From the IMG/VR virus record IMGVR_UViG_3300023283_000173, positions 16,495 through 80,494 of that record: 64,000 nt of DNA; one strand, given 5' to 3'. This DNA is from a virus. Its lineage: Duplodnaviria > Caudoviricetes. Shown here piece after piece: positions 11,641-63,381 of this stretch. Each line of letters starts with the position of its first letter. The stretch's first letter is position 1. The notes under the pieces were generated by a model. That model was given only the letters and a program-made list of their open reading frames with translations, searched no databases and was not told the origin of the DNA. Both the position numbers and the translations under genes were made by a program.

Positions 11641-11903
11641 CTGATCTTGTCCAGTATGTTCTTGTCGTCGATCACGGCCCCGAACACGTACACGCAGACG
11701 ATCACGATCAACGTCAGATACGACATCGTCATGGCGGTCTCCGCGGGCTCCGTGTCGACTCCTGTAGCCAGTATGTAGCATACCGTGGCCATGCAGAACA
11801 GGCCTATCACGAACATCACGAGGCGCCGCATCTTCCAGCTACCGTGGTGCTGTAGATTGATCGTCTCTCTCGCGTCTGCAGTCAACTGCACGTCCTCAGT
11901 CAT
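11637..11903 (-). CDS. Holin
   Basis: 88 aa, two hydrophobic helices, charged C-terminus, between endolysin and spanin. Confidence 0.75.
   Translation of the reverse strand: MTEDVQLTADARETINLQHHGSWKMRRLVMFVIGLFCMATVCYILATGVDTEPAETAMTMSYLTLIVIVCVYVFGAVIDDKNILDKIR
11877..11890 (-). promoter_or_regulatory. 14-bp element TGCAGTTGACTGCA, copy 1 of 8
   Basis: Exact match within the first codons of the holin gene. Confidence 0.8.
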
Positions 11904-12450
11904 AGGCTCGTCTCAACCACCCCCGCAAGAACTTCTCCATGCTCGGACGCCTCGTCGCCAGCACGCGGTAGAAGCCGGCCATCTCCGACCTGAAGGAGGC
12001 CACCACACAGGCCGGTGCTCCGACAGCCCACAAGGCACTCTCGGTCTTCGGACCGACTATACCGTCGTCGTCCAGGTCGCCCCCTCCGGCGGCTCTTATC
12101 GCCCTCTGGAGGAGGCGATGCGCAGTGCGAGGCCCCATGTTCACGCACGCGTCGAACACCTTCTCGCCGACCCCGACCGGCATCTTCTCGTAGTCGTACC
12201 TATCCCAGAACTCTGTCCTGTACAGCTCGACCGCCTGCTCCCTCGTAAGCCCGCGCACGTCGTCCGCATCGACGTCCCCGTCGCCGTCCGCGTCCAGGTC
12301 GATCCCCGCGACGTTCGTACCGGATAGGCGCGCCCGCAGGAACCTCAACGACACGCCCCAGTTCGTCGCCCCACCGGGATCGTCAGGATCGTCCACGAAG
12401 CCGCCCTCGTGATCCAATACCCTCCGAACCGCCTCGTCGAACCTGTTCAT
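11896..12450 (-). CDS. Endolysin, glycoside hydrolase family 108 with peptidoglycan-binding domain
   Basis: HEGGFVDDPDDPGGATNWGVS; FDACVNMG; LQRA...DDDGIVGPKT; FLRGWLRR. Confidence 0.92.
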   Translation of the reverse strand: MNRFDEAVRRVLDHEGGFVDDPDDPGGATNWGVSLRFLRARLSGTNVAGIDLDADGDGDVDADDVRGLTREQAVELYRTEFWDRYDYEKMPVGVGEKVFDACVNMGPRTAHRLLQRAIRAAGGGDLDDDGIVGPKTESALWAVGAPACVVASFRSEMAGFYRVLATRRPSMEKFLRGWLRRAYD

Positions 12451-12884
12451 CGCATCCTCTCGCACTCTGGCGGCGTCCAGACGTTGCCCGTCAGCAGCAG
12501 GTACTCGTGGCGCATCTCCTCGATCTGGTCGAACAGCAGTGAGGCGGCTGCGCGGGCACTCGGGTCGTCCTTTACGTCGCAGTACTGACGCTGGTAGTTG
12601 ATCAGGTTCAGCCGCATGTCGCGCTCCTCCATGCGGTCCCAGCGCGCCATGAGTCGGGTAAACTTCGCGTCGAGCTCGTCGAACTGACTGTTCACCTCCT
12701 GCGCCTGCGCGTAACCGGACAGATACGGTACGAGACCCTTGCTGGCAGCTACGTGTCCGACGACGCCCAGCAGCAGGACCAGGTTGAGTACCAGTAGCAC
12801 CTTAATGGCGTTGACCAGTCGCATCTCGAAGTCCTCCTCGCCGGGACGCCTCGGCCACAGCGATCTGAAGTACACCCTGATCAT
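12447..12884 (-). CDS. Single-pass membrane protein at the head of the lysis cassette
   Basis: TM helix IKVLLVLNLVLLLGVVG then coiled coil; ATGA overlap with endolysin. Confidence 0.65.
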   Translation of the reverse strand: MIRVYFRSLWPRRPGEEDFEMRLVNAIKVLLVLNLVLLLGVVGHVAASKGLVPYLSGYAQAQEVNSQFDELDAKFTRLMARWDRMEERDMRLNLINYQRQYCDVKDDPSARAAASLLFDQIEEMRHEYLLLTGNVWTPPECERMR

Positions 12885-12917
12885 GTCTGCGACTCCGCGT
12901 ATCATCCGAACACCCCG

Positions 12918-12956
12918 TGAAGCGTAGCATTCCGGAAAACTCGGTCCAACCGCAAC
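12918..12956 (-). promoter_or_regulatory. Class B promoter element upstream of lysis cassette
   Basis: 38/39 identical to 5331-5369; TTGGAC-17-TACGCT. Confidence 0.7.
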
Positions 12957-13039
12957 TCTCCGTCGCGACCGAGCATAGCACAACCTGTAGGTCGAGACCA
13001 AAGAGCCAGAAACACACTGGCCGGTATCCGGACCAGGTA

Positions 13040-13411
13040 CTACACTCTATCACCCTCCGTCCTCTGACCCTGCGCCAGCGCATGCCACCGCTCTCGCGTC
13101 ATCACCGCGCCGTTGATCTCGCGGCCTTCACGCACCCATTGGACCCAGCAACAGTCGCCGACGAATGTATATCCGGGCAGCCGGCCGCGCACGTCAGTCA
13201 GGCAGACGTCCGGCCTCGCCGCTCCGCAGCACGGACACATCACCCGCGTCTGTAGCCCGACTTGTTTCCGAGGCAGCGCGAGAGGCTCCAGCTCGTCGGG
13301 CAGAGTACGCGTCTGCCGCTTGAGGCGGACCGACACAGTCTCGACGATCTCCGCCCGCTCGCGGTCGGTCCGCCCCTCCCAGACATCCCGATAGCTCCGC
13401 GTCGCCATCAT
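13040..13411 (-). CDS. Hypothetical protein with Cys pairs
   Basis: CPCC and DCC motifs; ATGA overlap with tail tip gene. Confidence 0.55.
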   Translation of the reverse strand: MMATRSYRDVWEGRTDRERAEIVETVSVRLKRQTRTLPDELEPLALPRKQVGLQTRVMCPCCGAARPDVCLTDVRGRLPGYTFVGDCCWVQWVREGREINGAVMTRERWHALAQGQRTEGDRV

Positions 13412-19937: not shown

Positions 19938-20692
19938 TGGGCCTCTCCGACGCGTCCTATACCGGGGAAGAACGCCCCAGGTAGAGACACCTCCTTGCCG
20001 AATCGCAACTCGCACCCCCTAGGCGTCTTACTACACATATCCTGCGTCGGGTCAGCGGTGGACTGGTCGTCCACCGTGAAGAACGCGGACCCGGCGTACG
20101 GGCAGGGGAAGTTTCGGCCGGTCGTCGTGAACGTCCCGTCGTCGTTGCTAAATCTGTAATCCCGATCGCAGTACCTCTTGAGGGCTACCCGCCTCGGTAA
20201 CTGCACTCCCTGGACGTCGAAAGGTGAAGTCAACTGCATCTCGAGTACCCTCTTGTTGACACCCAACTTCCGGTCTACGATGAATTGATCCAGGCCGAAC
20301 ACGGCCGCCGCGTCCGCGTCCGGGTTCGCCTCGACACCCCCCTGTCCGTCGGGTCTCAGGTCTAGGAACTTGGCCAGTGTAAAGAACCTGCGGACCACGG
20401 CCCCGCGGAAGTCGTCGAACTGGGCGACCAGCGCCGCCACGTTGCTACCAGACGTCGCTATGCGAAACGTCGGCTGAGCGGGCTTGCCGTCTCCGGAGGT
20501 GGCGGGAGCGTCCATCTCGACCGGCAGCCAACTGTAGTCGACACCCCCGAACCTGATCAGGACCCTCTCCTCGAATATGGTGCTCGTGTAGTAACGCACC
20601 TGGTCGTCACCGAGCGCCGTGGCGTCAACCTCGAACAGCTCAACGACCTCTCCCACCGAGAAACTACGTAACTCTTCCTTCAACTCGGGCAC
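19934..20692 (-). CDS. Minor tail protein L-like
   Basis: VELFEVD, C...YR...CPYAG, D.CSKT..GCELRF Cys cluster. Confidence 0.88.
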   Translation of the reverse strand: MPELKEELRSFSVGEVVELFEVDATALGDDQVRYYTSTIFEERVLIRFGGVDYSWLPVEMDAPATSGDGKPAQPTFRIATSGSNVAALVAQFDDFRGAVVRRFFTLAKFLDLRPDGQGGVEANPDADAAAVFGLDQFIVDRKLGVNKRVLEMQLTSPFDVQGVQLPRRVALKRYCDRDYRFSNDDGTFTTTGRNFPCPYAGSAFFTVDDQSTADPTQDMCSKTPRGCELRFGKEVSLPGAFFPGIGRVGEAQ

Positions 20693-25201: not shown

Positions 25202-25215
25202 TGCAGTCAACTGCA
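25202..25215 (-). promoter_or_regulatory. 14-bp element, copy 2 of 8
   Basis: Exact match just after the tail tube stop codon. Confidence 0.8.
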
Positions 25216-26472: not shown

Positions 26473-26486
26473 TGCAGTCAACTGCA
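26473..26486 (-). promoter_or_regulatory. 14-bp element, copy 3 of 8
   Basis: Exact match abutting the AGGAGGG RBS of the tail tube gene. Confidence 0.8.
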
Positions 26487-32128: not shown

Positions 32129-32142
32129 TGCAGTCAACTGCA
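32129..32142 (-). promoter_or_regulatory. 14-bp element, copy 4 of 8
   Basis: Exact match between the terminator and the protease gene. Confidence 0.8.
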
Positions 32143-32173: not shown

Positions 32174-32208
32174 AAAAAAAAAGCCGACGCTAGGCCGGCC
32201 TCAGTCGG
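32174..32208 (-). terminator. Rho-independent terminator closing the early-gene insert
   Basis: CCGAC...AGGCC/GGCCT...GTCGG stem followed by a 9-T run. Confidence 0.75.
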
Positions 32209-42377: not shown

Positions 42378-42639
42378 GCGCCCTGTCTCCTCGTATGATC
42401 TCCAACGACCGCGGCGCGTCGATGACCAGCCTCACGTAAGCCGGTGAGCTACGACTCCCCACGGACAGAAACACGTCCGGAAGGACTTCGGTAGCCAGGT
42501 CCTCGGTGATCTCGAACCTCTCGCCGTCCTCCCTAACCACGATGCACCCCGCCGGTTTACTGACTATATCGCATACTACCAACACGGCGTCGCCGACATA
42601 CAGGTCTTCTCCCTCGTGCATCGTAAGGACTAGTGCCAC
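42367..42639 (-). CDS. CsrA/RsmA-like protein with internal insertion
   Basis: MALVLTMHEGEDLYVGD at N-terminus and VRLVIDAPRSLEIIR at C-terminus match CsrA beta strands. Confidence 0.6.
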   Translation of the reverse strand: MALVLTMHEGEDLYVGDAVLVVCDIVSKPAGCIVVREDGERFEITEDLATEVLPDVFLSVGSRSSPAYVRLVIDAPRSLEIIRGDRARGE

Positions 42640-44729
42640 TCCGTCTCTCCTGCCTCTAGGTACCCCAGCAGCAACTGGCCTGGGACGAACAGCTCACCGA
42701 CCGGACACACAGACAAGGACTGCTCCTCTGCCTTACTCAGTACGACGTCCATGATCTCTCTACCCCCGAACAGTTCGTCCGCAACGTCGTCTCGTACCAT
42801 GAACGGAACACCCGATAGCACCTCCCTCAGGTTCTTCGCCTCTCTCAGGTTCTTGAACCCAGCATACTGACTGGTAGTATGCGCCACCAGCCTGTGCTGA
42901 TACCCGGATAAGTCGTGCTGCATCATCCGCGACAAGACGTCCTCACACCAGTCCTGAAACGACGACTCCGTATACGGCTCCACAAGGTACGTCATCTCTC
43001 CCGGCAGCACGTACCGCTCTCGAGAGCAGTCTACGACCAATACAGACGGACCGCACTCTACCATAGCACCAACTACCATCTCCACGACCTCGTCAGGTGT
43101 CGTACCGAGTCCGTACAGTAACTCCATCTTCACCCAGTAGGGACACCCCGACACCGGTTCGTCGAACCCGGCACCCACGACACGCCGTGCAGTCAACTGC
43201 AGTGCTGTGTCGAGACCCGGCGGGTCACCGTCCTCCACAGGTACGTCCTCATCAACCCACACCGAGCCGCTCTCGCCGCACACCGTCAGTATGGTGTCTG
43301 CCGTCAGCGGTACCCCATTCAGGTACACAGCTCCTGCCTCATTGAAGCTCAGGTCGTTACACCCTACCACGCAGGGGACCCCCATCGCCCGCGTCACCAC
43401 GGCGGCGTGGCTCGTCGACCCTCCGTTACGAGTCACCACCGCGGCCGCCTTGCGAATTGCCTCGACGTCCTCCGGCGAGGTGTCGTGTACGACCAGCACC
43501 TTGTCCTCCGTATCCTCGTCTCGAGAGTAGGCGGCCCTTCCCGACCCCACGCCCGGTGTCACTGCGATACCCTTGCCCGTCGGCTCGACGTCGTACCCCT
43601 CGCGCACTCTCGGTCGAGTAGCGGTCTTGTAGTGCTCCGGCCTGACCATCCTGACCAGGTCGTCGCCGCCCACCATACCCCCGTCTACCATATCGGAGAA
43701 GATGCGGAACGCCGCCTTACCGGTCCTCTTGCCGGGACGAGCCTGTAGGACGTAGAGCACGCCCTCCTCGACGGTGAACTCCACGTCCACCATGTCGCGG
43801 TACTCGTCCTCGAGGACCGCCGAGACGGTCGTCAGCTCGTCGTAGACCCTCTTCCACACAGGTCCGAAGTCACCGTTCTCCGCCAGTCTCAGGTCGTGGG
43901 GGGTCACCCTACCGGACACGAGGTCCTCCCCCTGAGCGTCAGGCAGAAACTCTCCGTAGATCCCTCTATCGCCGGTTCGCGGGTCTCGCGTAAACAGCAC
44001 ACCGGTGCCGCTGTCCGGACCTCGGTTACCGAACACCATCTGTTGCACGACCACGGCCGTGTACATGTCATCAGACAAGCAGTCGGCTCTCCGGTAGGCG
44101 ACGGCCCGTTCGGATGACCAGCTCCTGAACACCGCCGTGATAGCCTCGTACAGTTGTTCCTCCACCGTGTCAGGCCACTCCCTGCCCGTGTACTTCTCGA
44201 GGGTGTCCACTAACCTTTGTACACGGTCCAGGTCGTCGAGCAACTCATCGTGCAACAGCACGTCCCACATGTTCGTGAGCGTCGTCTCCGATACACCCCA
44301 CGCGGACGTCGCGAGCGACCACACCAGGTTCCGTAAACACCGAACAGCGGTAGCGTCTCCGACGTCCTCCTCGACGTCCCGGTAGGTCTCGGACGTGACG
44401 CCTACGTTCAACACCGTGTCCATCATGCCCGGCATGGAGACGGGAGCACCTGACCGTACCGACACCAGCTTCCCGTCGAAGCCGCCTGACTCGCACGGAA
44501 ACATGGCGGACACTACTTCGCCCACGAGGCTCTTCACGAACTCGTGACGTCCGTCTTCGTCCTCGTAGTACCTGTGACACGCCGAGGTCGGGACGACCAC
44601 CCCGGGCGGTATCCTGAGATACTCCTGCTCTATACGAGACATACGGACGAGACCTGCGCCCTTACCCCCCAGCAGCTCAGGGTCGGGCTCGACGCTCGGT
44701 ACGACGTCACCAAACCTCACGATGTCCAT
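42630..44729 (-). CDS. PPDK-family dikinase: ATP-grasp and phosphohistidine domains plus a non-canonical C-terminal domain
   Basis: LLGGKGAGL, LVSVRSGAPVSMPGMMDTVLNVG, QQMVFGN..SGTGVLFTRDP, QGEDLVSG, DVEFTVE, LQARPGKRT, GGSTSHAAVV (His 43407-43409). Confidence 0.9.
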   Translation of the reverse strand: MDIVRFGDVVPSVEPDPELLGGKGAGLVRMSRIEQEYLRIPPGVVVPTSACHRYYEDEDGRHEFVKSLVGEVVSAMFPCESGGFDGKLVSVRSGAPVSMPGMMDTVLNVGVTSETYRDVEEDVGDATAVRCLRNLVWSLATSAWGVSETTLTNMWDVLLHDELLDDLDRVQRLVDTLEKYTGREWPDTVEEQLYEAITAVFRSWSSERAVAYRRADCLSDDMYTAVVVQQMVFGNRGPDSGTGVLFTRDPRTGDRGIYGEFLPDAQGEDLVSGRVTPHDLRLAENGDFGPVWKRVYDELTTVSAVLEDEYRDMVDVEFTVEEGVLYVLQARPGKRTGKAAFRIFSDMVDGGMVGGDDLVRMVRPEHYKTATRPRVREGYDVEPTGKGIAVTPGVGSGRAAYSRDEDTEDKVLVVHDTSPEDVEAIRKAAAVVTRNGGSTSHAAVVTRAMGVPCVVGCNDLSFNEAGAVYLNGVPLTADTILTVCGESGSVWVDEDVPVEDGDPPGLDTALQLTARRVVGAGFDEPVSGCPYWVKMELLYGLGTTPDEVVEMVVGAMVECGPSVLVVDCSRERYVLPGEMTYLVEPYTESSFQDWCEDVLSRMMQHDLSGYQHRLVAHTTSQYAGFKNLREAKNLREVLSGVPFMVRDDVADELFGGREIMDVVLSKAEEQSLSVCPVGELFVPGQLLLGYLEAGETEWH
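43188..43201 (-). promoter_or_regulatory. 14-bp element, copy 6 of 8
   Basis: Exact match inside the PPDK-like gene near the start of the novel C-terminal domain. Confidence 0.75.
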
Positions 44730-45373: not shown

Positions 45374-47675
45374 CTCGGTCCTCCCTCTGTACCTGCTCCA
45401 GTATAGATGCAGGCATATGCTCGAGCCCGACCTCGTGCCGGAGCCACACCTCGCGCTGACGCACGAGACCGAACGCCACCCCCGCCATAGCATCGGCAAC
45501 GTCCTTACTGAAGTTAGGGGGGTGATCGATCTTGTTCCGCTTGAAGTCCCTCTCCAACGAGACGATCTCCTTCTCGGCCTTGGCGTGAGGCGGAGCCTGC
45601 ACGCGCCGGTCATAAAGAGCCTGCTTCAGCACGTCATACGGCTGGGTCGTCGCGTCCACGCTCTGCACCCCCGTCGAGAACCCCTTCTGACTGAGGATCT
45701 GGAGTGAGTCCCTCGACTGCCACGAGTCGTAAGTCACCCACTTCACCGGGCACCCCAGGTCGCACAGCGCGTACAGTAGCTCCCTGATCTTCTCGAACGA
45801 CACCTCTCCTCCCCGCGGCGGCCGCACTTCAAGCAACACATCGTACTCGACCACCGGCAGAGTCTCCACCTCCTGACCGCGCCGCACGTGTACGAACCCG
45901 GGTACGTGGCCCACGGCGACCCCGGCCGAGTCAGAGCTCAGGCCCAGGTCCACGTGAGCGAAGCGTGGCTCGGACAGGTGACGCATCCGCTTCGGGTATA
46001 TCTGGACCTTCGTACCTCGGAAGTCACACCACTCCCGACTCAGTATCCTAGGCGATGTCCCAAAGCACGCAGCGACTGACTCCCTGTCCTGGATGAACGG
46101 GTGCACCGCCAGTGTAGAGACGCCCCCGATATCCCGCAGGGCCGCCATGAGGTCTTCCTCGAAGGCATGCCTGTAGTCCGTCGGTATGCGCTCGCACATG
46201 TCCCTGTCGTCTTCCGCGAGTTCCTCGTACTCGTCGTCCTCGAGTATCCGAGGTCTCCTGGACTCGTCCCCGCGGAACACCCAGAACCACCTCTCGGAGA
46301 ACGTACCCTCCGGCTTCACCTCCCAGAGCTTCTTGTCGAACACGAATATCTTATCGTTGCGCCGGGCCTCCTCGATCTTCTTGTCGGTGAACTCCCCGGG
46401 ATACTTCTTCGACGACACCAGGCAGAGCATCCCCGGTACGGTACCTCTCCGCATGAAGCGAGACTCACGACGACGCGAGATCGACCTGTAGAGCGCCAGT
46501 GCCTGGTCGTAGAAGCCATTCTCATCGCCGGCCTTAGACCGCTCGACCACGGCCATGTAGTTGCAGTTGTGCACGACTACGCCGTTGGCGACGTAGGTAT
46601 GCGTACGCCGCGTCTCTATATTGTACACCTGCCTATGACCTAATTTTCTGACGAAAACAACTCGTGCTCGATCAAGACCGTGAACACCCGACTCCCCTCC
46701 TCGGCGAACCTCCTCGCAGCCTCTTAGGCCCCCGGATCTTTCGGTGCCGGCACAATGAACCTCTTGTCCTACTCGTAGGTCTCCCAGACCTACCCAACCC
46801 GTGCTCGTCAGTAACGGGTGACTGGCAGTACCTACGAGACGAGACCCGTTATCGAACTCTACCTCCAATACATCTTTGAGTCCCGTGTATCTACTCGCCT
46901 CGACACGATCACGAACTACCTGTCCGTCCTCTACGCCGTATACAGCGTCTCCGGCGACCAAGGAATCGATCCTCACCGGTCCCGCGGGGGTGGACACGAG
47001 CGAGTCACCCACCAGGCACTCGTCCATGACGCCCCCGAACACGTTCTTCCCTATAGCAGCACTAGGGTCGCCACTAAGAGGCTCCACTATGATTCTGCGC
47101 GGGAACTCCATACGAGACTCTAGACTGCGGTTGTACGGAAAATCCCGGCGGAAGAACGGCGAGTTGTCGATCATCGCCCGAAAACGGTCGTAGTCGACGG
47201 ACTTGGACAGCTCCTTCTTCAGGTTCTGGAACACGAACTCGATCTCCGAGCTCGGCTGCAGGTCAAAGAACCCGTGCGGGTCGTCCATGCAGGCCAGCTC
47301 ATACAGCGAGTACGCGGTGGCCAGCAGGGCCAGCGTCGTTTTTCCACTTCCGATACTGCCCGTCAGGACGGCCTCGACGTAATTGCCGAGACACAGCTCC
47401 TCCAGACTTTCCATGACGACAGGGTAGACCTCCCCCGTCATCGCCATCAGGTCGGTCGACTCGACGAAGGTCCGAGGGTCGACCGGCAACTCCCGATACC
47501 TTATGGACGACCTGGCCCTGCGTCGTAGTTGTACTATCGCGCCGCGCAGGTACTCCAGCCTGTCGTCGGAATCGGACACGGTCTTCGAGTACGCCCACAC
47601 GACCCTCCCCGATCTGCCCATCCCAGAGAGTATCCTGCAGGCGGCCACCAGGGGGTGACAGACGTCACCCGTCAT
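45366..47675 (-). CDS. terL: Terminase large subunit (intein-containing)
   Basis: Walker A TGSIGSGKT, Walker B GGVMDE, nuclease HVDLG..SD.AG, SKDVADAMAG. Confidence 0.9.
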   Translation of the reverse strand: MTGDVCHPLVAACRILSGMGRSGRVVWAYSKTVSDSDDRLEYLRGAIVQLRRRARSSIRYRELPVDPRTFVESTDLMAMTGEVYPVVMESLEELCLGNYVEAVLTGSIGSGKTTLALLATAYSLYELACMDDPHGFFDLQPSSEIEFVFQNLKKELSKSVDYDRFRAMIDNSPFFRRDFPYNRSLESRMEFPRRIIVEPLSGDPSAAIGKNVFGGVMDECLVGDSLVSTPAGPVRIDSLVAGDAVYGVEDGQVVRDRVEASRYTGLKDVLEVEFDNGSRLVGTASHPLLTSTGWVGLGDLRVGQEVHCAGTERSGGLRGCEEVRRGGESGVHGLDRARVVFVRKLGHRQVYNIETRRTHTYVANGVVVHNCNYMAVVERSKAGDENGFYDQALALYRSISRRRESRFMRRGTVPGMLCLVSSKKYPGEFTDKKIEEARRNDKIFVFDKKLWEVKPEGTFSERWFWVFRGDESRRPRILEDDEYEELAEDDRDMCERIPTDYRHAFEEDLMAALRDIGGVSTLAVHPFIQDRESVAACFGTSPRILSREWCDFRGTKVQIYPKRMRHLSEPRFAHVDLGLSSDSAGVAVGHVPGFVHVRRGQEVETLPVVEYDVLLEVRPPRGGEVSFEKIRELLYALCDLGCPVKWVTYDSWQSRDSLQILSQKGFSTGVQSVDATTQPYDVLKQALYDRRVQAPPHAKAEKEIVSLERDFKRNKIDHPPNFSKDVADAMAGVAFGLVRQREVWLRHEVGLEHMPASILEQVQREDRVA
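46566..47018 (-). mobile_element. 151-aa mini-intein in TerL without a homing endonuclease
   Basis: CLVGDSLVST N-block, TASHPLLT B-block, VYNIET...YVANGVVVHN/C C-block; inserted right after the Walker B DE. Confidence 0.93.
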
Positions 47676-48282
47676 CGACCGTCTCACCCTCTATCACGCG
47701 GTAGAGCTCCTCCTGCTCCTCCGTCCAGTCGAAGTGAGTCTCCCGTCCGTCCGGACCGACCAGGGTCCCGGTCATGTGCTTCGGAGCCCGCGACATGATG
47801 CCTGTCTCCAGTTGCAGCCTGCCCAGCTCGACGAGCAGGTCCTTCAGGAAGCGCATCTCTTCCGTCACCATCTTGAGGAGCATACCTTGTGGACGCCCGG
47901 TCTTCCGCTCGTTCCTGGCGACGGCCTCGACGCGCTCCTTCTGCTCTACGACGAGTCTCTCTACCTCGTCTATCACGTTCAGGTTCTGCACGACGTGCGT
48001 CGTGGCCCGCTGTCTGTTCACTGCCAGGGCGCGCTCCGTGATCTCCTCGACCGTTCTCTTCCTAACGACGTTCCTGACGTACCGGAGCAGGTACCTGTGC
48101 AGGGTAGTTCTATTGACGCCCTGGACGAGGCCCCACTCCTCGTGGATCTTCTTGGCTACCTTGAGTGCGCTCACCCCGTCGCGCAGCAGTGCGTCGACCT
48201 CGTTCAGTTTATTCGGAGGCAACTCCAGGAGTTTGGACGGTATACCCTTGGCCACAGACCTACTCCGAGTCTGTCTCGGCAT
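47665..48282 (-). CDS. Terminase small subunit
   Basis: N-terminal HTH, coiled coil, overlaps terL start. Confidence 0.7.
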   Translation of the reverse strand: MPRQTRSRSVAKGIPSKLLELPPNKLNEVDALLRDGVSALKVAKKIHEEWGLVQGVNRTTLHRYLLRYVRNVVRKRTVEEITERALAVNRQRATTHVVQNLNVIDEVERLVVEQKERVEAVARNERKTGRPQGMLLKMVTEEMRFLKDLLVELGRLQLETGIMSRAPKHMTGTLVGPDGRETHFDWTEEQEELYRVIEGETVDDG

Positions 48283-49120
48283 CCTCGACGTTCGCCCTCG
48301 TCGGGTGCCCGGAGAGGTTCTTCGGTAGCTTCACCTCGGGAGACTTCTCCACGAGCTTCTCGACGAGCTCGTCGAGGTAGCCCTGTGCAATTGACTGCAG
48401 CACCCCTCCCACGATGTCATCCATGAGCCTCCGGTGTTCTATGCAGAGATCGGCCACCTTGTCGAACGCCCTCATCGTGTCCTTCCGAGCCTCCACCCAT
48501 ACCGACCTGCGTCCTCCGTAGTCGAAGACCATAAACCCGTACGGCACGGTGTCTCCGTATTTGGAGAACAGCTCGTTCAGCACGCGAGACAGCCCGTCGA
48601 TGGTCCTGATCTCCCTGGCGGCCTCCCTGAATTTTTCCCTCATGCCGGGGTCGTCGATCGACTTGGCCGTCTGGTCGATCAGCCTCTTGAACTCCTTCTC
48701 CTCGGCAAAGCCGAACGCCTCCTGCAGGACGTCGTCCGCATACTTGTCAGCCATCTGCTGATACAGATCGAAGAACGCGGCCGGGTCAAATTGACCCCTG
48801 ATCACGTTGTGCCTGACCATCTGGAAACGCTCGGCCTCCTCGTCGAACTCCGGGTCGTCTATCACCGAGCACGGAACCTCCTCATAGTCGAGATACACCG
48901 CGGCGTCGTACCTGTGATGTCCGCCAACGATACGGTAGGTGCCGTCGTCGAGAGGCCTGACCAGGATCGGGTCCGTGAATCCCATGCGCTGGACGTTGTC
49001 GACCAGGAGGTCGAACTGCCTCCCGGTCATCTTGTTCGGGTTGTCGGGATTCGGGACCAACGCCGAGACCGGCAGGTCCTTACGCACCACCATGTCGATC
49101 CTCCTTGATTTGGTGACCAC
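48260..49120 (-). CDS. ParB/Srx N-terminal-domain protein
   Basis: LVPNPDNPN, GFTDPILVR, YRIVGGHHR. Confidence 0.88.
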   Translation of the reverse strand: MVTKSRRIDMVVRKDLPVSALVPNPDNPNKMTGRQFDLLVDNVQRMGFTDPILVRPLDDGTYRIVGGHHRYDAAVYLDYEEVPCSVIDDPEFDEEAERFQMVRHNVIRGQFDPAAFFDLYQQMADKYADDVLQEAFGFAEEKEFKRLIDQTAKSIDDPGMREKFREAAREIRTIDGLSRVLNELFSKYGDTVPYGFMVFDYGGRRSVWVEARKDTMRAFDKVADLCIEHRRLMDDIVGGVLQSIAQGYLDELVEKLVEKSPEVKLPKNLSGHPTRANVEDAETDSE

Positions 49121-49132
49121 TATACCATCTCT

Positions 49133-50641
49133 TCACGTGCGCACCAAGTGCCCCACCTCCAGAGACGCGTCCTCATACCCGTAGTGCATCATCAAGGCTC
49201 GTCGGTATACGTTAAAATCAGACAGGAACGTCATAGTCTCTTTCATCCTGCTCTCTAAAGGTAGGCCCCTCGCCAACGTCTTCAGCTCTCCCGTATCACA
49301 CACGTCCTCTATCCTACTCAGCATCCGTATCTCGTCGGGACCCTCCAACGCACACACTACATCGTTGTTCTTAAGAGAGGCAGGAACACAATCGACCATC
49401 TCCCTCTCGGTCCTGTCGACGAACTCCAATAGCTGGTTGACGAACCACATCGCATTCTTGTCCTCCAAGAGAGGTAAGAACACCTCCTGCTGCCATCGAA
49501 GGAACCTCTCGTACATTTCCGCGTAGTCGTCGATCATGGCCCTCACGACCGCGTACGCCTCCTCGACGCCACTCACGAAAAACGGGTAGTCCTCGCCGAG
49601 CATACCAACCGAATAAGTCGCTCTCTGCACGATCGCCGGCGTACCGCGAACCAGCGGCTCAAGGAGCGACAGCGTGTACCCATCATCACGCGCCATCACG
49701 AGGATCACGTCCACCTCCTCGCGCATGGTCCGCCAGAACTCCTCTCTCGGCAGGCGCATGAACTCGATACCGGAGAGTTCTATTCCCGTCCTCTTAGACA
49801 CCCTCTTCGCCTGTGCCACTGCTGTTTTCGTGTTTGACGTACACACCATTCTGACGTGACCCCTGCCGCCTCGCACAATCCAGTGCCTCTCCATCACGGA
49901 CAGGATGTCCTCGACGCGCCTGTGCACGAGCTCGAACCGCTGCGTGAACCCGACCGTGAACGGCTTCTCCATCCTGTCAGTCCTGGCCACCTGCTCGCCG
50001 GTCTTCGATTCTACACCGGATAATCGCACTGGGACCGCCCCGAGAGACTTGTGATCCAGCGATCTCACCGCCGTAGGGGTCAAGTAGTGTCTGGCGACCT
50101 GCAGAACCTGTTCACGCTCCCACGGGTTTATGAACAGGTTCAGATCGGACGCGGAATAACCTACCAGGTGCTGCAGGTCCTGAACCTCCGAGACAGCCTG
50201 GGCCACACATTCCTTGAAGCTCATCACAGGCATGTCGTCTATCACGACGATCTTCCGGAGTCCCCTATATCCCGATCCTCGTATACCCGTCAGGTTCACC
50301 CTGTAGTGCGGAACCAGCGGGACCCGGCATGTCAGCAGCAGGTCCGTGTCCCAGTACGGTCCGCCGAAGTAGACTATCTTCCTGATCTCGTCCGAAAACC
50401 TGTAGTACTCCTTCATGCGGTCGGTATACATCTCCACATACAGGTACTCGAGTCGGGGGTGACGGTATAGCCAGGTCTCGTCTACGTTCCACCTCCCACA
50501 CCGTCCAGACCTCGGGAGTATAAATCTGATGTACACGTCCTCCCGCCTGTCCAGGATCTCCTTTGCCGCCTCCTGCATCTTGTAGCACATAACGCAGAAC
50601 TGCGGTTCTGCAGTGACGATGGGATCGAAAACCATTTTCAT
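49133..50641 (-). CDS. GT-B glycosyltransferase 3
   Basis: VILVMARDDGYTLSLLEPLVRGTPAIV resembles the GT4 D/E-x7-E donor-binding motif; in sugar operon. Confidence 0.7.
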   Translation of the reverse strand: MKMVFDPIVTAEPQFCVMCYKMQEAAKEILDRREDVYIRFILPRSGRCGRWNVDETWLYRHPRLEYLYVEMYTDRMKEYYRFSDEIRKIVYFGGPYWDTDLLLTCRVPLVPHYRVNLTGIRGSGYRGLRKIVVIDDMPVMSFKECVAQAVSEVQDLQHLVGYSASDLNLFINPWEREQVLQVARHYLTPTAVRSLDHKSLGAVPVRLSGVESKTGEQVARTDRMEKPFTVGFTQRFELVHRRVEDILSVMERHWIVRGGRGHVRMVCTSNTKTAVAQAKRVSKRTGIELSGIEFMRLPREEFWRTMREEVDVILVMARDDGYTLSLLEPLVRGTPAIVQRATYSVGMLGEDYPFFVSGVEEAYAVVRAMIDDYAEMYERFLRWQQEVFLPLLEDKNAMWFVNQLLEFVDRTEREMVDCVPASLKNNDVVCALEGPDEIRMLSRIEDVCDTGELKTLARGLPLESRMKETMTFLSDFNVYRRALMMHYGYEDASLEVGHLVRT

Positions 50642-51705
50642 GAGGCGCCTCTCTCGAACCCCACCATCTGCTCTACTGTCCTGTCTACCGGAGTCCGTGG
50701 CGCCCACCCGTACACGTCGACCAGCGGCCCGTTGTCGGTGACCCACCACGCGTGGTCTCCCATACGCACTCGATCGATGACCTCGTACTCGACACCTCTC
50801 CCGACCGCACTACCCACGAGGTCTATCGCCTCCAGTACCGACAAACTCGTCTCAAGCCCCCCACCGACGTTGTAGACGGACCCCGGCTCCACACCCACCT
50901 CGAGCATGGTGCACACCAGCTCGGCCAGATCAGCCGCGTGGAGGTTGTCGCGCACCTGCCTGCCGCCGTATCCCTCGACGACATAAGGCGTGCAGTTGAC
51001 TGCACTACGCACCAGGTAGGCAAGAAACCCGTGTAGCCTAACCCCAGCGTGGCCTGGTCCCGTCAAGCACCCCGCCCTAAGACAGACGGTGGGCATCCCG
51101 AAGTACCGCCCGTACTCCTGTACGTAGAGGTCTCCCGCCAACTTAGAGACACCGAACAAACTGTGCATCGACCTGTCGACGTCGAGGTCCCCTACTCGGA
51201 ACCCTCTCACAGACCACTCGGACGGCGTCAGTCTCGTATGTCTCACGTCGTAGTCTAGTCGGTTCGGTGCGTCGCCGTATACCTTGTTCGTACTCATGTA
51301 CACGAGGGGTATATCGGTAGAGACCTGTCGTACGGCGTCCAACAGTAATAACGTAGCCCGCGCGTTAACGTCGAAGTCCACCGTCGGTATGCGCACTGCC
51401 TTGTCGTGCGACGGCTGCGCCGCGGCGTGTACGACCCCCGACAAGTTTGGGATCGACGAGACGACCTCTCGTACACATCCCTCGTCGCGCAGGTCGATGT
51501 CGATGTGTACATAGGAGTCCCCTAGCTCTCTCTTCAATCTCCTCACGCTCCGCCTCGTCGACGCGGCCTCTCCGAAGAACTCACCACGCATGTCGCAATC
51601 TATGCCATAGACACGACAGCCGGGAGACCGACGAGTCAGCTCCCTCGCGACGGCCGAACCCACCAACCCTGCGGACCCCGTGATCAGAAACGAAAGGTCA
51701 CGCAT
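50638..51705 (-). CDS. NAD-dependent epimerase/dehydratase (CDP-paratose 2-epimerase-like SDR)
   Basis: ITGSAGLVG, HAAAQPSHD, STNKVYGD, FGVSK, CLRAGCLTGP, QVRDNLH. Confidence 0.9.
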   Translation of the reverse strand: MRDLSFLITGSAGLVGSAVARELTRRSPGCRVYGIDCDMRGEFFGEAASTRRSVRRLKRELGDSYVHIDIDLRDEGCVREVVSSIPNLSGVVHAAAQPSHDKAVRIPTVDFDVNARATLLLLDAVRQVSTDIPLVYMSTNKVYGDAPNRLDYDVRHTRLTPSEWSVRGFRVGDLDVDRSMHSLFGVSKLAGDLYVQEYGRYFGMPTVCLRAGCLTGPGHAGVRLHGFLAYLVRSAVNCTPYVVEGYGGRQVRDNLHAADLAELVCTMLEVGVEPGSVYNVGGGLETSLSVLEAIDLVGSAVGRGVEYEVIDRVRMGDHAWWVTDNGPLVDVYGWAPRTPVDRTVEQMVGFERGAS

Positions 51706-57556: not shown

Positions 57557-58070
57557 ACTCCTTCTCCTCGATCTCGTTCTCCAACCCGCGACTCTCGAAC
57601 AACCACCGCGGTCCAATGGCGACGCACTCTCCGTTTACGGTGACCAGTTTCTTCGGCAGGAAGTACATCACACCCTTCAGCTCGAACTTCCACGACTTAC
57701 CAGTGCTCGTGTCACCCAGACACGCGTCGAACGACACCTGCACGACGTCTCTTTCGAACTTCCCACCGGTACTCTCGGCGTCCCCGACCGGCGGCTGGTC
57801 GAGCAGTACCTCGAGGTCGAACCCGGCTCTCTCGAGCTGCTTCCTGTACTTCCAAAGCAAGCCGTTCTTGCCGTCCCTGTTCTCGACCCTCTGTATGCCC
57901 CTCAGTTGTCCGGGCGACAGGCGACCGTACTTGATCACCGCGTTCGCCAGCGAGTGCCCGAACTCTGCGTCCCACTTCGAGAACCCCTGTTCGTCCCAGG
58001 ACTTCGCCCCGTCGCACTTCCCCGCTAGGAACAGGACGGCGTTCTCACAAGTCTGTTTCTTCAGCTCCAT
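57549..58070 (-). CDS. Hypothetical protein
   Basis: CDGA..DEQGFSKWDAEFGHSLA; own promoter and RBS. Confidence 0.7.
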   Translation of the reverse strand: MELKKQTCENAVLFLAGKCDGAKSWDEQGFSKWDAEFGHSLANAVIKYGRLSPGQLRGIQRVENRDGKNGLLWKYRKQLERAGFDLEVLLDQPPVGDAESTGGKFERDVVQVSFDACLGDTSTGKSWKFELKGVMYFLPKKLVTVNGECVAIGPRWLFESRGLENEIEEKEYE

Positions 58071-58103: not shown

Positions 58104-58132
58104 AGACTATCTTGTGTTCCCTACACAGTCAA
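58104..58132 (-). promoter_or_regulatory. Sigma70-like promoter
   Basis: TTGACT-17-TAGTCT. Confidence 0.7.
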
Positions 58133-58145: not shown

Positions 58146-58159
58146 TGCAGTCAACTGCA
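58146..58159 (-). promoter_or_regulatory. 14-bp element, copy 7 of 8
   Basis: Exact match; contains the upstream gene's TGA; lies 13 nt upstream of the -35 box. Confidence 0.8.
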
Positions 58160-58838: not shown

Positions 58839-58883
58839 CCTACCCTCCTTGGCTCTGGGATGTGTGTTTGTGTTCATAGTCTT

Positions 58884-58912
58884 AACATAGGAGGTAGGAT
58901 GTAGTTTGTCAA
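58884..58912 (-). promoter_or_regulatory. Strong sigma70 promoter, copy B of 92-bp cassette
   Basis: TTGACA-17-TATGTT. Confidence 0.85.
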
Positions 58913-58930
58913 GTAGGCGGGTAAAAAATT

Positions 58931-59197
58931 TTACTCCCTAAGCATGGCCTCCAGCTCGTAGCCCAGTACGTAGAGACACCTCTCGATCGCCTCCACAGTA
59001 CCCGGTGACTCACCGGCCTCTATCCTGCGTATCGTGGAGCGGCCGACACCGGCCGCGGCGGCGAGGTCTCGTTGCGTGTAACCTCGCTCCGTCCTGATCT
59101 CTCGGAGTATCCTGCCCCACGCGGTAGCGTTCACGCCCATACCACGGTACCCCGCACTGTCCGAGGCGAGGTTACACAGGTCTGTTACGGGACTCAA
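58931..59197 (-). CDS. XRE-family HTH transcriptional regulator
   Basis: LREIRTERGYTQRDLAAAAGVGRSTIRRIEAG. Confidence 0.9.
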   Translation of the reverse strand: MSPVTDLCNLASDSAGYRGMGVNATAWGRILREIRTERGYTQRDLAAAAGVGRSTIRRIEAGESPGTVEAIERCLYVLGYELEAMLRE

Positions 59198-60085: not shown

Positions 60086-60115
60086 GTGTACCCTCCCTGG
60101 TAGTCTACGTGCTCT

Positions 60116-60144
60116 AGTCTAGGCTAGGTCAGGTCGGTTGTACA
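60116..60144 (-). promoter_or_regulatory. Sigma70-like promoter
   Basis: TGTACA-17-TAGACT. Confidence 0.5.
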
Positions 60145-60154
60145 GCCTGATACG

Positions 60155-60547: not shown

Positions 60548-61137
60548 ACACCGTTCTGGGTGTGGTTGACGAAGAACTTCAGGGTGTCGTTACTGGTCTT
60601 CGAGAACGAGCTGAGGTCAAAACCAGTCAGGAGCGGATCCCCTGACGCCCCGCCGAACGTGGCCGCGGCGATGGACACGGTCCCCGCCACGATAGCCGAG
60701 CTACTGAAGTCGGCCTTCGAGTAAGAAAACCGCCAGCTCACCACGTCAACTCCCGAGCCGTCGTTGTCTGTGTCGTCGTCGTTCGTCTTGGGATACCCTG
60801 CGTCTGCGGCCTTCTCGGACCCCGCGATCACGCTGGCCAGGTTGTCTGCAGTCGACCCCTTGGCGGGGTGTCCGGCGTCCCAGGCACCCTCGGACAGGTA
60901 GAGGCTCGTGAACGCGTTCGTCACGGCCTCCTCCGCCATGCGCTGGGCGTAGTACTGGTCTCCGGCGTCGGTCACGATGTTACTCGCCGCGACCAGTCTC
61001 CGGCCCTCGGGTCCGACCAATACCGCCAACACGTTCCGGTGTCGAGACACGAGCACGTCGTGCCGGGTCAACCAGAGTCCAACACGACTGCGGTACACCC
61101 GCTCGCCCAGGCCGTCAATGACGTCTCTTATCAACAT
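60544..61137 (-). CDS. Putative virion structural protein
   Basis: NIVTDAG...F..LYL; acidic, Ser/Thr-rich, beta-rich. Confidence 0.55.
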   Translation of the reverse strand: MLIRDVIDGLGERVYRSRVGLWLTRHDVLVSRHRNVLAVLVGPEGRRLVAASNIVTDAGDQYYAQRMAEEAVTNAFTSLYLSEGAWDAGHPAKGSTADNLASVIAGSEKAADAGYPKTNDDDTDNDGSGVDVVSWRFSYSKADFSSSAIVAGTVSIAAATFGGASGDPLLTGFDLSSFSKTSNDTLKFFVNHTQNGV

Positions 61138-61306
61138 GTCCGTCTCCTCTCCTCACGACGGAGACCAGGCTCTCCTCCGTCTGCACCACCGAGTTCGTAG
61201 GTGCCGAGCCACCCCTGCCCCGTCTCGCGAGGTAACCCACGACCGCCAGTGACACCACGCTCACTATAGCAGTCCCGCCCACGACTATGAACAACCACAC
61301 AGTCAT
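61115..61306 (-). CDS. Small membrane protein
   Basis: One TM helix followed by RRGRG. Confidence 0.5.
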   Translation of the reverse strand: MTVWLFIVVGGTAIVSVVSLAVVGYLARRGRGGSAPTNSVVQTEESLVSVVRRGDGHVDKRRH

Positions 61307-63381
61307 CTCGACCCCGTCAGGCTCCGGATCAGGTCCCGCGCCGCGGTCCTCAGGGCTCGGACAGACCGTGATGCAGTCAACTGCACACGCGCCACGACCA
61401 CGCCGAAGGCACCCTTCGCGAAGGACTCTACCACCTCCAGGCCCTCGTTTACCAGTACCATGAGACCTCGGACGAACAGAATCCCCTCCTGCGTCCTGAG
61501 TTCCTCCTCCAGTAGACGGACGAGTACGGACGCACGAGTCAGTGCCTCGGACACCTCCGAATCCTCGTCCACGGCCCAGAGCAGGTCGCGCCTCGACGTC
61601 AGGTCCTCGAGCGTCGCAAGCTCCTCAACCAGCCTCCTCGTGAGTACCCTCGTCCTGCGCGTGTTCTCGAGGGTCTGCAGGGTCTCCGCCAGCGCCCGCA
61701 CGAGACCAACCACGCCCGCGGTACCCTCGGCCGTCTGCAGAGCCTCCTGTACGGCCTGCGTGACCCCTATCGCTCGAGACGAGGACTCGCCGGTCTCGAC
61801 AATCTCCTGTATTCCGGTCGTCACACCCCTAGCAAGGTCCGTACCCTCAGAAACGTTCGTGAACTCGTCCCGCCTCCGCGTCAAGTCGCGCAGGTTACTC
61901 GACGTCTCGGTGGTCCACACCTCCTCAAGCAAGCTCCTCGTCAGGGCTCGAGTACGTGTCGCGTCCTCGACGACCTCTACTAACTCTCCCACGACTCGAG
62001 CCAACGTACGAGACCTACCCGGCGACTCAGTCGTGTCCAAGATCTCAGCAACGCTCCTCAGCAATACCGACGACGTAGCCAGAGCCTCTACGGACTCCAT
62101 CGACTCTACCAGACTCCTCACGACGCCTCTCACGACGTCCCTCATCTCCTGTGTCTCAACAGTCTCCAGCATGGAACGAACTATCCCTGCGGTCGACTGC
62201 AGCCCTTCGGACGTATTCAGCGCCTCTGCCTCACGTCGAACGAGCTCCCGGAACACCGCGCTCTGCTCCTGTGTCTCGACAGACTCCCCGTGTACGCGAA
62301 CGAGGGCATCACCTCCCCCCACATCCTCCACCGCCCCCGCAGTCGCGAAGCTGGTCGGGTCGGACTGGTTGTTGAATTCAGTAGTGATCCAGTCGGCCGA
62401 GATTGTGCCTGCGCGTAACCGCCAACCAAACATCTCCCACAAATCGCCGCCATTGAACGCGGAATCCAGCATCTTCGCACCGAGACCCATGTCGTTTGTA
62501 TGTGCATGTGGGTTCGTCGATACCGTAACAGTCCCGCGCGACGCGGCATCATCAAAGAATTCCGCGTTACCAGCGGAATCAACAACAACTCCAAGCCGTC
62601 GCCATCGTGTATTTAAGTCAGTTATGTCGTTTCTTTGTGGTGCATCGTTAGCCGCAATACCGAACCAAATTAGCCGCCCTTCTTCGCCTGTGGTTTCTGC
62701 AAAACCCCACCCCTCATTAGCCGAATTTCGTTTCCAGAAAAAATTTCTCAAGTCTACGCCCCCACCGTCACTCGTCAGCAGCCAACCGAACGCCGACATC
62801 GGCACCTGGGCTCTAATCGCTGGGGAATCAACGACTCTATAGACGTCATCGACGCCGTCGAAATCAGTTGCTGTATTACCATACACACCATTTGATGACG
62901 CCGGCGACCCTAGCGCCATGATTGACTGTTTCCCCGCAGAGTCAACCACATTGGCCGGATCGCCATGAAACACGAGTTCGTAATCCGCCCACACCGCATT
63001 GCGCCCGAGCGGGTCGGTGACGGCGGGCTGGGAGTCCGTGCCCGCTGTGTTCCACCAGACATAGACGATCGTGTCGTTGTCCTGGGAGAGGCTCGGGATC
63101 AGAACCCAGATCTCGGCGGAGCCGTTAGCCGGGTCGGGATCGGTGACGAAGCTGACGACTTCGAGCGGGATCGCATTCGTCCCGGCCTCGTCGGAGGTGA
63201 AACGGATATCCCCACCGCCGTTCTGGGCCGGGCTCGCCCCGTCGGAGTCGAACATCTCCGAAGGCAGATTAGCCGCGGTGATCAGCGCGGGGAAATTAGT
63301 CAGAGTTCCGCTTGATCCGCCGATCTTGGTATGATCGACGGTGACGGAGGCTTTCTTGTTATGCGTGAGTCCGCCGGCCAT
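61303..63381 (-). CDS. Putative fibre protein: DUF2341-like + LamG/ConA-like head and 20-aa repeat shaft
   Basis: TNFPALI, GGDIRFT, AEIWVLIPSL...VYVWW (DUF2341-like); LamG-like W..L.VV...F.D...MGLG; 15 x 20-aa repeats. Confidence 0.78.
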   Translation of the reverse strand: MAGGLTHNKKASVTVDHTKIGGSSGTLTNFPALITAANLPSEMFDSDGASPAQNGGGDIRFTSDEAGTNAIPLEVVSFVTDPDPANGSAEIWVLIPSLSQDNDTIVYVWWNTAGTDSQPAVTDPLGRNAVWADYELVFHGDPANVVDSAGKQSIMALGSPASSNGVYGNTATDFDGVDDVYRVVDSPAIRAQVPMSAFGWLLTSDGGGVDLRNFFWKRNSANEGWGFAETTGEEGRLIWFGIAANDAPQRNDITDLNTRWRRLGVVVDSAGNAEFFDDAASRGTVTVSTNPHAHTNDMGLGAKMLDSAFNGGDLWEMFGWRLRAGTISADWITTEFNNQSDPTSFATAGAVEDVGGGDALVRVHGESVETQEQSAVFRELVRREAEALNTSEGLQSTAGIVRSMLETVETQEMRDVVRGVVRSLVESMESVEALATSSVLLRSVAEILDTTESPGRSRTLARVVGELVEVVEDATRTRALTRSLLEEVWTTETSSNLRDLTRRRDEFTNVSEGTDLARGVTTGIQEIVETGESSSRAIGVTQAVQEALQTAEGTAGVVGLVRALAETLQTLENTRRTRVLTRRLVEELATLEDLTSRRDLLWAVDEDSEVSEALTRASVLVRLLEEELRTQEGILFVRGLMVLVNEGLEVVESFAKGAFGVVVARVQLTASRSVRALRTAARDLIRSLTGSR
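61372..61385 (-). promoter_or_regulatory. 14-bp element, copy 8 of 8
   Basis: Exact match near the 3' end of the fibre gene. Confidence 0.8.
61405..62304 (-). repeat. Fifteen gap-free 20-residue protein repeats
   Basis: Consensus [LV][VT]Rx[LV]xEx[LV]x[TV]xExxxxxRx; Glu7 and Glu13 invariant. Confidence 0.9.

Follow-up and report, generated by a model that had tools for sequence, protein, structure and literature searches.

What role could a single 14-bp word play when it recurs in exact copies along the genome of a tailed phage? The question is raised by a stretch of 64,000 nucleotides (hereafter the window), comprising bases 16495–80494 of the 80,494-bp IMG/VR virus record IMGVR_UViG_3300023283_000173 (Duplodnaviria; Caudoviricetes), which CheckV rates 83% complete. 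Judged by sequence comparison, the word TGCAGTTGACTGCA (hereafter the 14-mer) is this phage's allele of a lineage-wide palindrome, TGCA-N6-TGCA, and the word itself is not the family trait. We consider it roughly 60% probable that these palindromes form a lineage-wide lattice of docking sites for a phage-encoded dimer acting in a KorB-like manner, with a ParB-like protein encoded in the window as the best candidate for that dimer.

Copies of the 14-mer in the phage genome

The original prediction, made from the window alone, listed eight copies of the 14-mer and described them as always lying in the transcribed orientation. An exact 14-mer is present at each of these eight positions on the minus strand, which is the coding strand, but a ninth exact copy, inverted on the plus strand (50991–51004), had been missed. 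The orientation claim consequently holds for eight of nine copies in the window. In the whole record, 14 exact copies are dispersed, 12 in sense (−) and 2 in antisense (+) orientation (two-sided binomial p = 0.013, by our own arithmetic), so that the multiplicity extends genome-wide and the strictness of orientation does not. All of the approximately 115 genes lie on the minus strand according to our own codon-usage gene call, and the sense orientation of the 14-mer is therefore inseparable from an orientation along the genome as such. The word is far above chance, as had been claimed, with 0.00 copies expected from 100 dinucleotide shuffles. Its architecture, with 5-bp inverted arms, is not that of an asymmetric, stoperator-type site.

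The concentration of copies at gene junctions was also confirmed. Among the 15 TGCA-N6-TGCA sites of this phage, 7 are intergenic or on a gene edge against 8.5% expected (p = 1e-4), and every one of the seven intergenic copies points the same way as the genes. Of the five coding copies in sense orientation, four are read in the frame xTG-CAG-TTG-ACT-GCA; these are the four window copies that, as originally noted, impose the peptide [VL]QLTA. Three sense copies (58146 in the window, and genome positions 6871 and 3695, both outside the window) share the upstream flank cgaggcggaggcg, which indicates that they are partly duplications and not independent orientation events. The three small early-region genes with these flanked copies appear to finish in the peptide EAEACS, the TGA of the motif serving as the stop codon, and by sequence their ends look like paralogous gene ends or duplicated junction cassettes. 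Part of the orientation bias in this phage is accounted for by flank duplication and by the embedded TGA and xTG, which serve as a stop codon and a start codon, respectively.

The palindrome in related phages

The portal protein groups the phage with Rhodobacter phage RcZahn (53% identity), Rhizobium phages RHph_TM16 and RHph_Y1_11 (hereafter TM16 and Y1_11), and Stenotrophomonas phages DLP3 and DLP5, with several Vibrio phages as more distant relatives. The genome of RcZahn is colinear with that of this phage, and its genes likewise all lie on a single strand. A related-locus search with the portal protein returned only short contigs at 37–42% identity. An unbiased k-mer count in RcZahn brought up TGCAATCAACTGCA and TGCAATCAATTGCA. 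Counts of TGCA-N6-TGCA amount to 15 in this phage, 27 in RcZahn, 35 in DLP3, 38 in DLP5, 18 in TM16, and 15 in Y1_11, compared with 0–6 for other spacings from N3 to N9 or for the backward control. Conservation in relatives, which the original prediction had proposed as a check, was thus found for the palindrome (15–38 sites per genome) and not for the exact word.

The same lattice is present in further phages. KarBoss contains 26 sites and Vibrio phage PG28 contains 34. In Rhodobacter phage RcDurkin, the 31 sites are chiefly the perfect palindrome TGCAATCGATTGCA; in Agrobacterium phage JP1, 35 sites take the form of another perfect palindrome, TGCAAACGTTTGCA; and in Vibrio phage V-YDF132, the 33 sites are chiefly the perfect palindrome TGCAATTAATTGCA. 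Aeromonas phage HJ05 has 18 sites, TGCAACCGGTTGCA plus a CTGG variant. In the Vibrio phages Ares1, PJ32, and PP24, full sites are few, and 17–28 sites retain the strong arm TTAATTGCA with the other arm degenerate. Counting TGCA-N6-TGCA in Arthrobacter phage KellEzio revealed no such lattice.

Across the clade, the consensus is TGCA-R-T-Y-R-A-Y-TGCA, with constant TGCA ends, in most cases R, T, A, and Y at positions 5, 6, 9, and 10, and a pyrimidine–purine central step (CG, CA/TG, or TA). Specific to this phage are a paired arm change, TGCAG/CTGCA where TGCAA/TTGCA is found elsewhere, and the TTGA centre; the arm change is also present at the site in the epimerase gene. The closest relatives by the ParB-like protein (metagenomic contigs L220–L223, 63–65% identity) carry TGCAGTTAATTGCA, TGCAATTGATTGCA, and similar words, never the 14-mer. 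An exact-word scan of IMG/VR for the 14-mer gave scattered single copies and no other many-copy contig among the matches listed. The idea that the TTGA centre is a flipped TCAA form of RcZahn and the DLP phages was dropped, the TTAA and TCGA centres of the sisters forming a transition series at the central pyrimidine–purine step. Given the perfect palindromes of sister phages and the many copies located outside transcripts, neither the asymmetric centre nor the sense orientation is the basis of function; both are a lineage quirk, secondary to the palindrome lattice.

Spacing and conserved positions of the sites

In six core genomes (this phage, RcZahn, DLP3, DLP5, TM16, and Y1_11), the gaps between sites are in every case more even than random, with coefficients of variation of 0.44–0.61 against approximately 0.93 (P < 0.04 in each genome and < 1e-4 in DLP3). 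On the scale of the lattice, one site occurs every 2–6 kb in phages of 80–100 kb. The sites are simultaneously enriched in intergenic regions of the core genomes (p from 2e-2 to 2e-9). A typical intergenic copy lies 0–20 nt past a stop codon and then either 10–16 nt ahead of the next start, where it adjoins the ribosome-binding site, or shortly before a −35-like hexamer.

Several positions recur between genomes. The ParB-like gene carries a site 718–730 nt from its start in this phage, where it is the variant at 48386, and in DLP5, TM16, Y1_11, and the metagenomic relatives L220 and L221; DLP3 has one in the corresponding part of its gene. In the epimerase/WcaG genes (annotated or Pfam-identified) of RcZahn, TM16, DLP5, and Y1_11, a site lies 674 nt from the start, and the inverted copy at 50991 occupies a similar position, with a similar encoded peptide, in this phage's own epimerase gene. 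That gene is only 24–26% identical to those of RcZahn, DLP3, and DLP5 and shows no detected similarity to those of TM16 and Y1_11, and its orthology with the relatives' genes is therefore not established. Upstream of the protease gene, a site is present in this phage (32129), RcZahn, DLP3, and DLP5. Near the position corresponding to 36377, DLP5 has a site 3 nt past the stop codon of its last gene and immediately ahead of the portal gene; the matching genome end of DLP3 also carries a site.

Orientation is looser in the relatives. Although all genes run one way, the sites divide 22:11 in DLP3 and 22:12 in DLP5, which is not the strict orientation of stoperators. The inverted copy at 50991 and the inverted variant at 48386 lie in conserved genes where relatives also carry sites and where the centre is fixed by coding; both therefore suggest that either orientation is tolerated by the reader.

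Promoters and terminators next to the sites

The position of the sites relative to promoters was assessed with a strict sigma-70 scan, in which a consensus promoter was counted when its −35 box starts 7–13 nt after a site. By this measure, 11 of 34 sites in PG28 and 11 of 33 in V-YDF132 are followed by TTGACA-N17-xATAAT, the −35 box lying mostly 7–10 nt after the site. Promoter-linked sites also number 4 of 26 in KarBoss, 5 of 28 in Ares1, 4 of 17 in PP24, and 3 of 21 in PJ32, and random intergenic positions score 2–5% in the same scan. In PG28 (L183–L187) and V-YDF132 (L215–L219), the 11 promoters of each phage are strong and near-identical, TTGACA-N17-(G/C)ATAAT, and each −35 box is preceded by a site at a distance of 7–10 nt. 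Promoters and terminators are readily identified in the Vibrio phages, whose genomes are AT-rich, and the order there is a terminator T-run, the site, 8–9 nt, and then TTTACA-N17-TATATT. The strict scan found no site-adjacent promoter in the high-GC members, this phage included, which may reflect the weak consensus of alphaproteobacterial promoters.

The ParB-like protein as candidate reader

A profile of the presence or absence of this phage's proteins across eleven genomes, at BLAST-level sensitivity, singled out the ParB-like gene (48260–49093, minus strand; 277 aa) as the only gene of this phage present in all nine compared phages with the full palindrome lattice and absent from Ares1. With the proteins of PG28 as queries, three genes are common elsewhere but missing from PJ32 and Ares1, and the ParB-like gene has the widest distribution among them. 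The ParB-like gene belongs to a conserved gene run consisting of a glycosyltransferase gene, a small gene in some cases, the ParB-like gene, a gene of approximately 200–270 aa, and the large terminase gene (window 47665–50635; L164–L167). The run is conserved from Vibrio phage PG28 to RcDurkin and Agrobacterium phage JP1, and KellEzio keeps the glycosyltransferase–ParB part.

The structural model of the protein, with a mean predicted local distance difference test (pLDDT) score of 80, comprises a ParB N-domain, a helical middle of low confidence, and a C-terminal domain predicted to dimerise. In the model, residues 3–101 match ParB bound to cytidine triphosphate (CTP; 7bnr) with Z 13.7 and a root-mean-square deviation (rmsd) of 2.1 Å over 95 residues, and residues 3–130 match KorB (8qa9) with Z 13.1 and an rmsd of 3.5 Å over 122 residues. 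A structural match to Noc reaches residue 171 with a poor rmsd, and a profile of the protein aligns to Noc over positions 5–201 (E = 8e-4). Modelled in two copies, the protein is predicted to dimerise through residues 185–269, with a score of 0.53 against 0.00 for the best control, at least 77% contact agreement between runs, and a partner pLDDT of at least 66. Among 30 proteins solved as pairs, 20 attained the mark applied to this score, compared with 1 among 23 solved as single chains; the pass of the ParB-like protein may be partly due to its likeness to solved ParB dimers.

In place of the canonical GERRxRAA box, the protein reads GGHHRYDAA, retaining only the second Arg. H59, H60, and R61 are invariant in 44 homologues, and this invariant GGHHR where GERR would stand suggests an altered nucleotide or catalytic chemistry. 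Searches with ParA-type models (AAA_31 and CbiA) gave no match across the 80-kb record, whose completeness is 83%.

The ParB-like gene and the large terminase gene are separated by a gene for a 196-aa protein (47665–48255, minus strand), of which the representative library contains 275 homologues. The model of this protein (pLDDT 91) combines a small helical domain at the N-terminus with a helix of 70 residues and a beta hairpin, a predicted architecture that points to a small terminase. The suggestion that it might be the DNA-binding half of a split ParB was rejected on this small-terminase-like model. The protein gave no Foldseek match at E ≤ 0.001 and no match by profile against PDB sequences.

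In Ares1, PJ32, and PP24, the place of the ParB-like gene is taken by an unrelated gene of 243 aa (241 aa in PP24; hhalign probability 0.1), which is Cys-rich and has no Pfam match (Ares1, L189:17489–18220; PJ32, L213:15271–16002; PP24, L208:1543–2268). These three phages are exactly those whose sites have lost one arm, and the product of the Cys-rich replacement gene is possibly a swapped reader. HJ05 encodes two very divergent ParB N-domain genes upstream of its terminase gene. Strict tracking of the lattice with the ParB-like gene consequently failed: Ares1, PJ32, and PP24 have sites without the gene, HJ05 has only the divergent genes, and KellEzio has the gene without a lattice.

Proposed mechanism

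The sites are quite probably docking sites on double-stranded DNA for a phage-encoded protein. A homodimer would read both TGCA(R) arms, and the centre would retain a flexible pyrimidine–purine step; the perfect palindromes of sister phages fit such a symmetric dimer. Sites upstream of promoters, at junctions, and within genes as gap fillers would leave no stretch of the chromosome far from a site, and the even spacing together with the copies inside genes suggests that whole-chromosome coverage matters. By docking at promoter-proximal and distal operators as KorB does, the dimer would silence or time transcription across the one-directional genome. In PG28 and V-YDF132, the promoters linked to sites are of consensus strength, which suggests that they would be repressed and not activated. 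The stable lysogeny of DLP3 and the phagemid state of DLP5 (PMC7326821) make genome-wide silencing in lysogeny plausible for some members. We put the chance that the main effect of the lattice is on transcription at just short of even, and the assignment of the ParB-like protein as the reader is tentative, being somewhat likelier to fail than to hold. A fuller and more speculative version, to which we give only about one chance in three, joins these parts: a ParB-derived, terminase-side protein of a large clade of 80–100 kb proteobacterial siphophages would load on the lattice, coat or bridge the chromosome, silence strong host-type promoters for lysogeny or timing, and mark or compact the genome for packaging, with a swap of reader in Ares1-type phages giving rise to asymmetric sites.

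A number of observations weigh against the KorB-like docking lattice or against its proposed reader. KellEzio encodes a 38%-identical ParB-like protein yet has no TGCA lattice, and conversely Ares1, PJ32, and PP24, which have no ParB-like gene, keep their 17–28 half-degenerate sites, some of them at promoters, so that another protein may be the reader everywhere. In the protein itself, residues 100–200 are modelled at a pLDDT of only 51–77, the putative helix-turn-helix has an acidic second helix (AEEKEFKRLI) in the Noc-aligned segment, and the Pfam KorB and HTH_ParB models find no match in this genome. Judged from its GGHHRYDAA box, use of CTP by the protein is uncertain. Summed over the six core genomes, the intergenic copies divide 44:6 by orientation against 47:30 for coding copies, a difference that a symmetric dimer leaves unexplained. 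Furthermore, only one copy in this phage, 58146, has a recognisable promoter-like sequence downstream, and this sequence (TTGACT-N17-TAGTCT, 58104–58132, minus strand), which begins 13 nt from the copy, has a weak −10 box and is a relaxed consensus match only.

Alternative explanations

The original prediction had offered three explanations: stoperators, an RNA hairpin, and ParB-loading sites. The last is the best supported as a prediction, although the sites would act less as a centromere than as a KorB-type operator lattice. In the stoperator explanation, an L5-type immunity repressor, possibly the XRE protein (58931–59197), would block elongating RNA polymerase in one direction and so silence the prophage. 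The co-orientation of 12 of the 14 exact copies and of every intergenic one, the many copies at gene junctions, the temperate life of DLP3 and of the phagemid DLP5 (PMC7326821), and the presence of an 88-aa HTH_3 protein in the window are what such a repressor would lead one to expect. The site is nevertheless palindromic, perfectly so over 14 bp in RcDurkin, JP1, and V-YDF132, and orientation is mixed in DLP3 and DLP5 despite their one-directional genes. Homologues of the XRE gene were found, at BLAST-level sensitivity, only in RcZahn, TM16, and Y1_11, so that this candidate repressor is not shared across the lattice and would not be its reader unless readers had been repeatedly swapped; this explanation is accordingly improbable. 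The chance that the copies act as RNA, through a hairpin with a 5-bp stem and a UUGA loop serving antitermination, processing, or translation control, is very slight. A compensatory arm change (G–C here, A–U elsewhere), the many intergenic copies ending 10–16 nt ahead of a start codon against the ribosome-binding site, and the intergenic orientation bias agree with a hairpin, but in the Vibrio relatives a third of the copies precede a −35 box by 7–10 nt, frequently with a terminator T-run ahead of them, and hence lie outside the downstream transcript. The stem is weak as well, at −4.7 kcal/mol here, −2.5 in relatives, and 0 to −0.3, that is, no stem, in Ares1-type sites; the closing pair is an A:C mismatch in 7 of the 18 RcZahn copies listed, and coding copies occur in both orientations.

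Two other explanations keep the sites on DNA and assign them elsewhere. Under one, which is unlikely, they would serve another DNA transaction, such as recognition by the small terminase for packaging, replication priming, recombination hot spots, or T5-like strand-specific nicks. The regular spacing and the copies within coding sequence suggest a role for the genome as a whole rather than gene by gene; the conserved gene run groups the ParB-like gene with the small-terminase-like and large terminase genes; the 196-aa neighbour begins with a small helical domain; and the phage has its own genes for a primase, helicases, a RecA-like protein, and a Cas4-like nuclease. The fixed distance of 7–10 nt to consensus −35 boxes in PG28 and V-YDF132 points instead to transcription, and perfect palindromes carry none of the strand information that nicking or Chi-like action would need. 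Under the other, the phages would have borrowed the operators of a conserved host regulator of the LacI/PurR type. The words TGCAAACGTTTGCA of JP1 and TGCAATCGATTGCA of RcDurkin conform to TGNAANCGNTTNCA, the general operator pattern of the LacI family, and JP1 shares its core with the PurR box; that no clear DNA-binding domain was found in the ParB-like protein also leaves room for a host protein. The arms are nonetheless the same across Vibrio, Aeromonas, Stenotrophomonas, Rhodobacter, Rhizobium, and Agrobacterium hosts, two phages of the one strain R. capsulatus YW1 differ in centre (TCAA/TTAA in RcZahn, TCGA in RcDurkin), both arms have changed in the phage studied here, and the TTAA and TTGA centres have no CG, which is typical of LacI operators, all of which makes a borrowed host operator quite improbable. 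Patterns of sigma-54 promoters and of IHF, Fis, ARG-box, and FNR-type sites were dropped on inspection, their spacing or arms being unfit.

Comparison with known systems

The closest mechanistic analogue of the docking-site lattice appears to be KorB and its OB operators on the IncP plasmid RK2. In RK2, OB operators lie 4–10 bp or 45 to >1,000 bp upstream of target promoters, and KorB, a global repressor, reaches the distal promoters as a CTP-dependent sliding clamp (PMC11790492). In both systems, a single short palindrome recurs many times along a mobile replicon, at proximal and distal sites, and the proximal OB distance of 4–10 bp from the promoter can be set beside the mostly 7–10 nt that separate site and −35 box in PG28 and V-YDF132. 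As in the KorB system, the replicon encodes a ParB-fold protein predicted to dimerise C-terminally, and no ParA was found in this record. The differences are also significant. RK2 has about a dozen OB sites, whereas the phages have 15–38 evenly spaced sites per 80–100 kb, many of them within genes; unlike KorB, the candidate has GGHHR for GERR, no recognisable KorB or ParB helix-turn-helix, and no identified KorA-like partner. The element is not filed in the KorB family, because the nucleotide box is non-canonical, the DNA-binding domain is putative, and binding is only predicted.

In phages, the closest published description of such a lattice is that of the 17-bp dyad repeats of Cluster O mycobacteriophages, TGTTCGG-NNN-CCGAACA, with 34 copies in Corndog and a dimeric binder predicted by the authors (PMC4351075). 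The two lattices share invariant inverted arms and a variable, weakly oriented centre; the Cluster O repeats number more than 30, about a third of them in genes, and Cluster O phages, like this one, encode a protein with a ParB-like domain (PMC4351075). The sequence and the phage lineage are unrelated, and the Cluster O host is an actinobacterium. Most Cluster O sites lie away from predicted promoters, in contrast to the third of sites near promoters in the Vibrio lattice members.

The stoperators of Cluster A mycobacteriophages, bound by L5 gp71, have an asymmetric sequence and strictly follow the direction of transcription (as summarised in PMC4351075). They resemble the present sites in the dozens of copies of one short site, often at junctions, and in the single protein thought to act genome-wide, and differ in that the present site is palindromic, perfectly so in some members, with an orientation that is merely a bias in some. 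ParB with parS and Noc with its NBS sites offer a further parallel, in which ParB-fold dimers read 14–16-bp palindromes. The spo0J gene of B. subtilis contains a parS site, and Noc has dozens of dispersed sites; here, similarly, a site lies inside the ParB-like gene itself. Unlike a ParABS centromere, the lattice comes with no ParA found, and its sites are dispersed rather than clustered and in part promoter-linked.

Individual sites and neighbouring genes in the window

The sites of the window are described here in the direction of transcription, all on the minus strand except where noted. The copy at 61372–61385 lies inside a 692-aa gene (61303–63381), 69 nt before its stop codon, and encodes VQLTA. 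At 58146–58159, the motif TGA is the stop codon of the upstream small gene, and the copy has the cgaggcggaggcg flank. The inverted copy (50991–51004, plus strand), which reads TGCAGTCAACTGCA on the sense strand, lies within the NAD-epimerase gene and encodes AVNC. A one-mismatch copy on the plus strand (48386–48399), reading TGCAGTCAATTGCA on the sense strand, lies in the 3′ part of the ParB-like gene. The copy at 43188–43201, within a PPDK-like gene (42630–44729), encodes LQLTA, and that at 36377–36390 lies in the DNA polymerase gene, 21 nt before the stop codon and 49 nt upstream of the portal start.

The exact intergenic copy at 32129–32142 has the capsid protease start 52 nt downstream, and a terminator-like hairpin with a T-run (32180–32202) lies just upstream of it, giving the same order of terminator and then site as in the Vibrio phages. 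Two exact intergenic copies border a 412-aa tail gene: one (26473–26486) is 7 nt after the preceding stop codon and 13 nt before the ATG, abutting the GGAGGG ribosome-binding site, and the other (25202–25215) is 5 nt past the stop codon of the tail gene. A one-mismatch copy, TGCAGTTGACTTCA, lies within a tail-region gene (20225–20238), and the copy at 11877–11890, which encodes VQLTA, lies 13 nt inside an 88-aa gene and 5 nt past the stop codon of the upstream gene.

Two side observations concern other parts of the genome. The second most over-represented word genome-wide is ACCAAGGAGGGT (for example, upstream of window position 58070), with 11–14 sense copies and 0 antisense; it is an extended ribosome-binding-site context that also occurs in RcZahn (ACCAAGGAGGGT six times and CCAAGGAGGG 13 times). 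In addition, a 290-aa protein (window 7822–8694), encoded upstream of the DnaB-like helicase and primase genes, has weak PHROG matches to replication initiator O-like and DnaD-like helicase loaders.

Significance of the lattice

No description of a TGCA-N6-TGCA lattice was found in the literature searched on the motif strings, the RcZahn and DLP3 papers included. If the KorB-like lattice is correct, dozens of cultured and many uncultured phages would share an undescribed genome-wide control layer made of one protein and 15–40 sites, and its members would include DLP3 and DLP5, which are studied for therapy, as well as Rhodobacter, Rhizobium, Agrobacterium, and Vibrio phages. The palindrome would also provide a simple sequence marker for the clade. 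Several lattice members grow in the laboratory, which makes the system directly testable. Such a layer would explain how silencing or timing is achieved in genomes whose approximately 100–150 genes lie wholly or almost wholly on one strand, and it would extend long-range regulation of the ParB/KorB type from plasmids to lytic and temperate phages.

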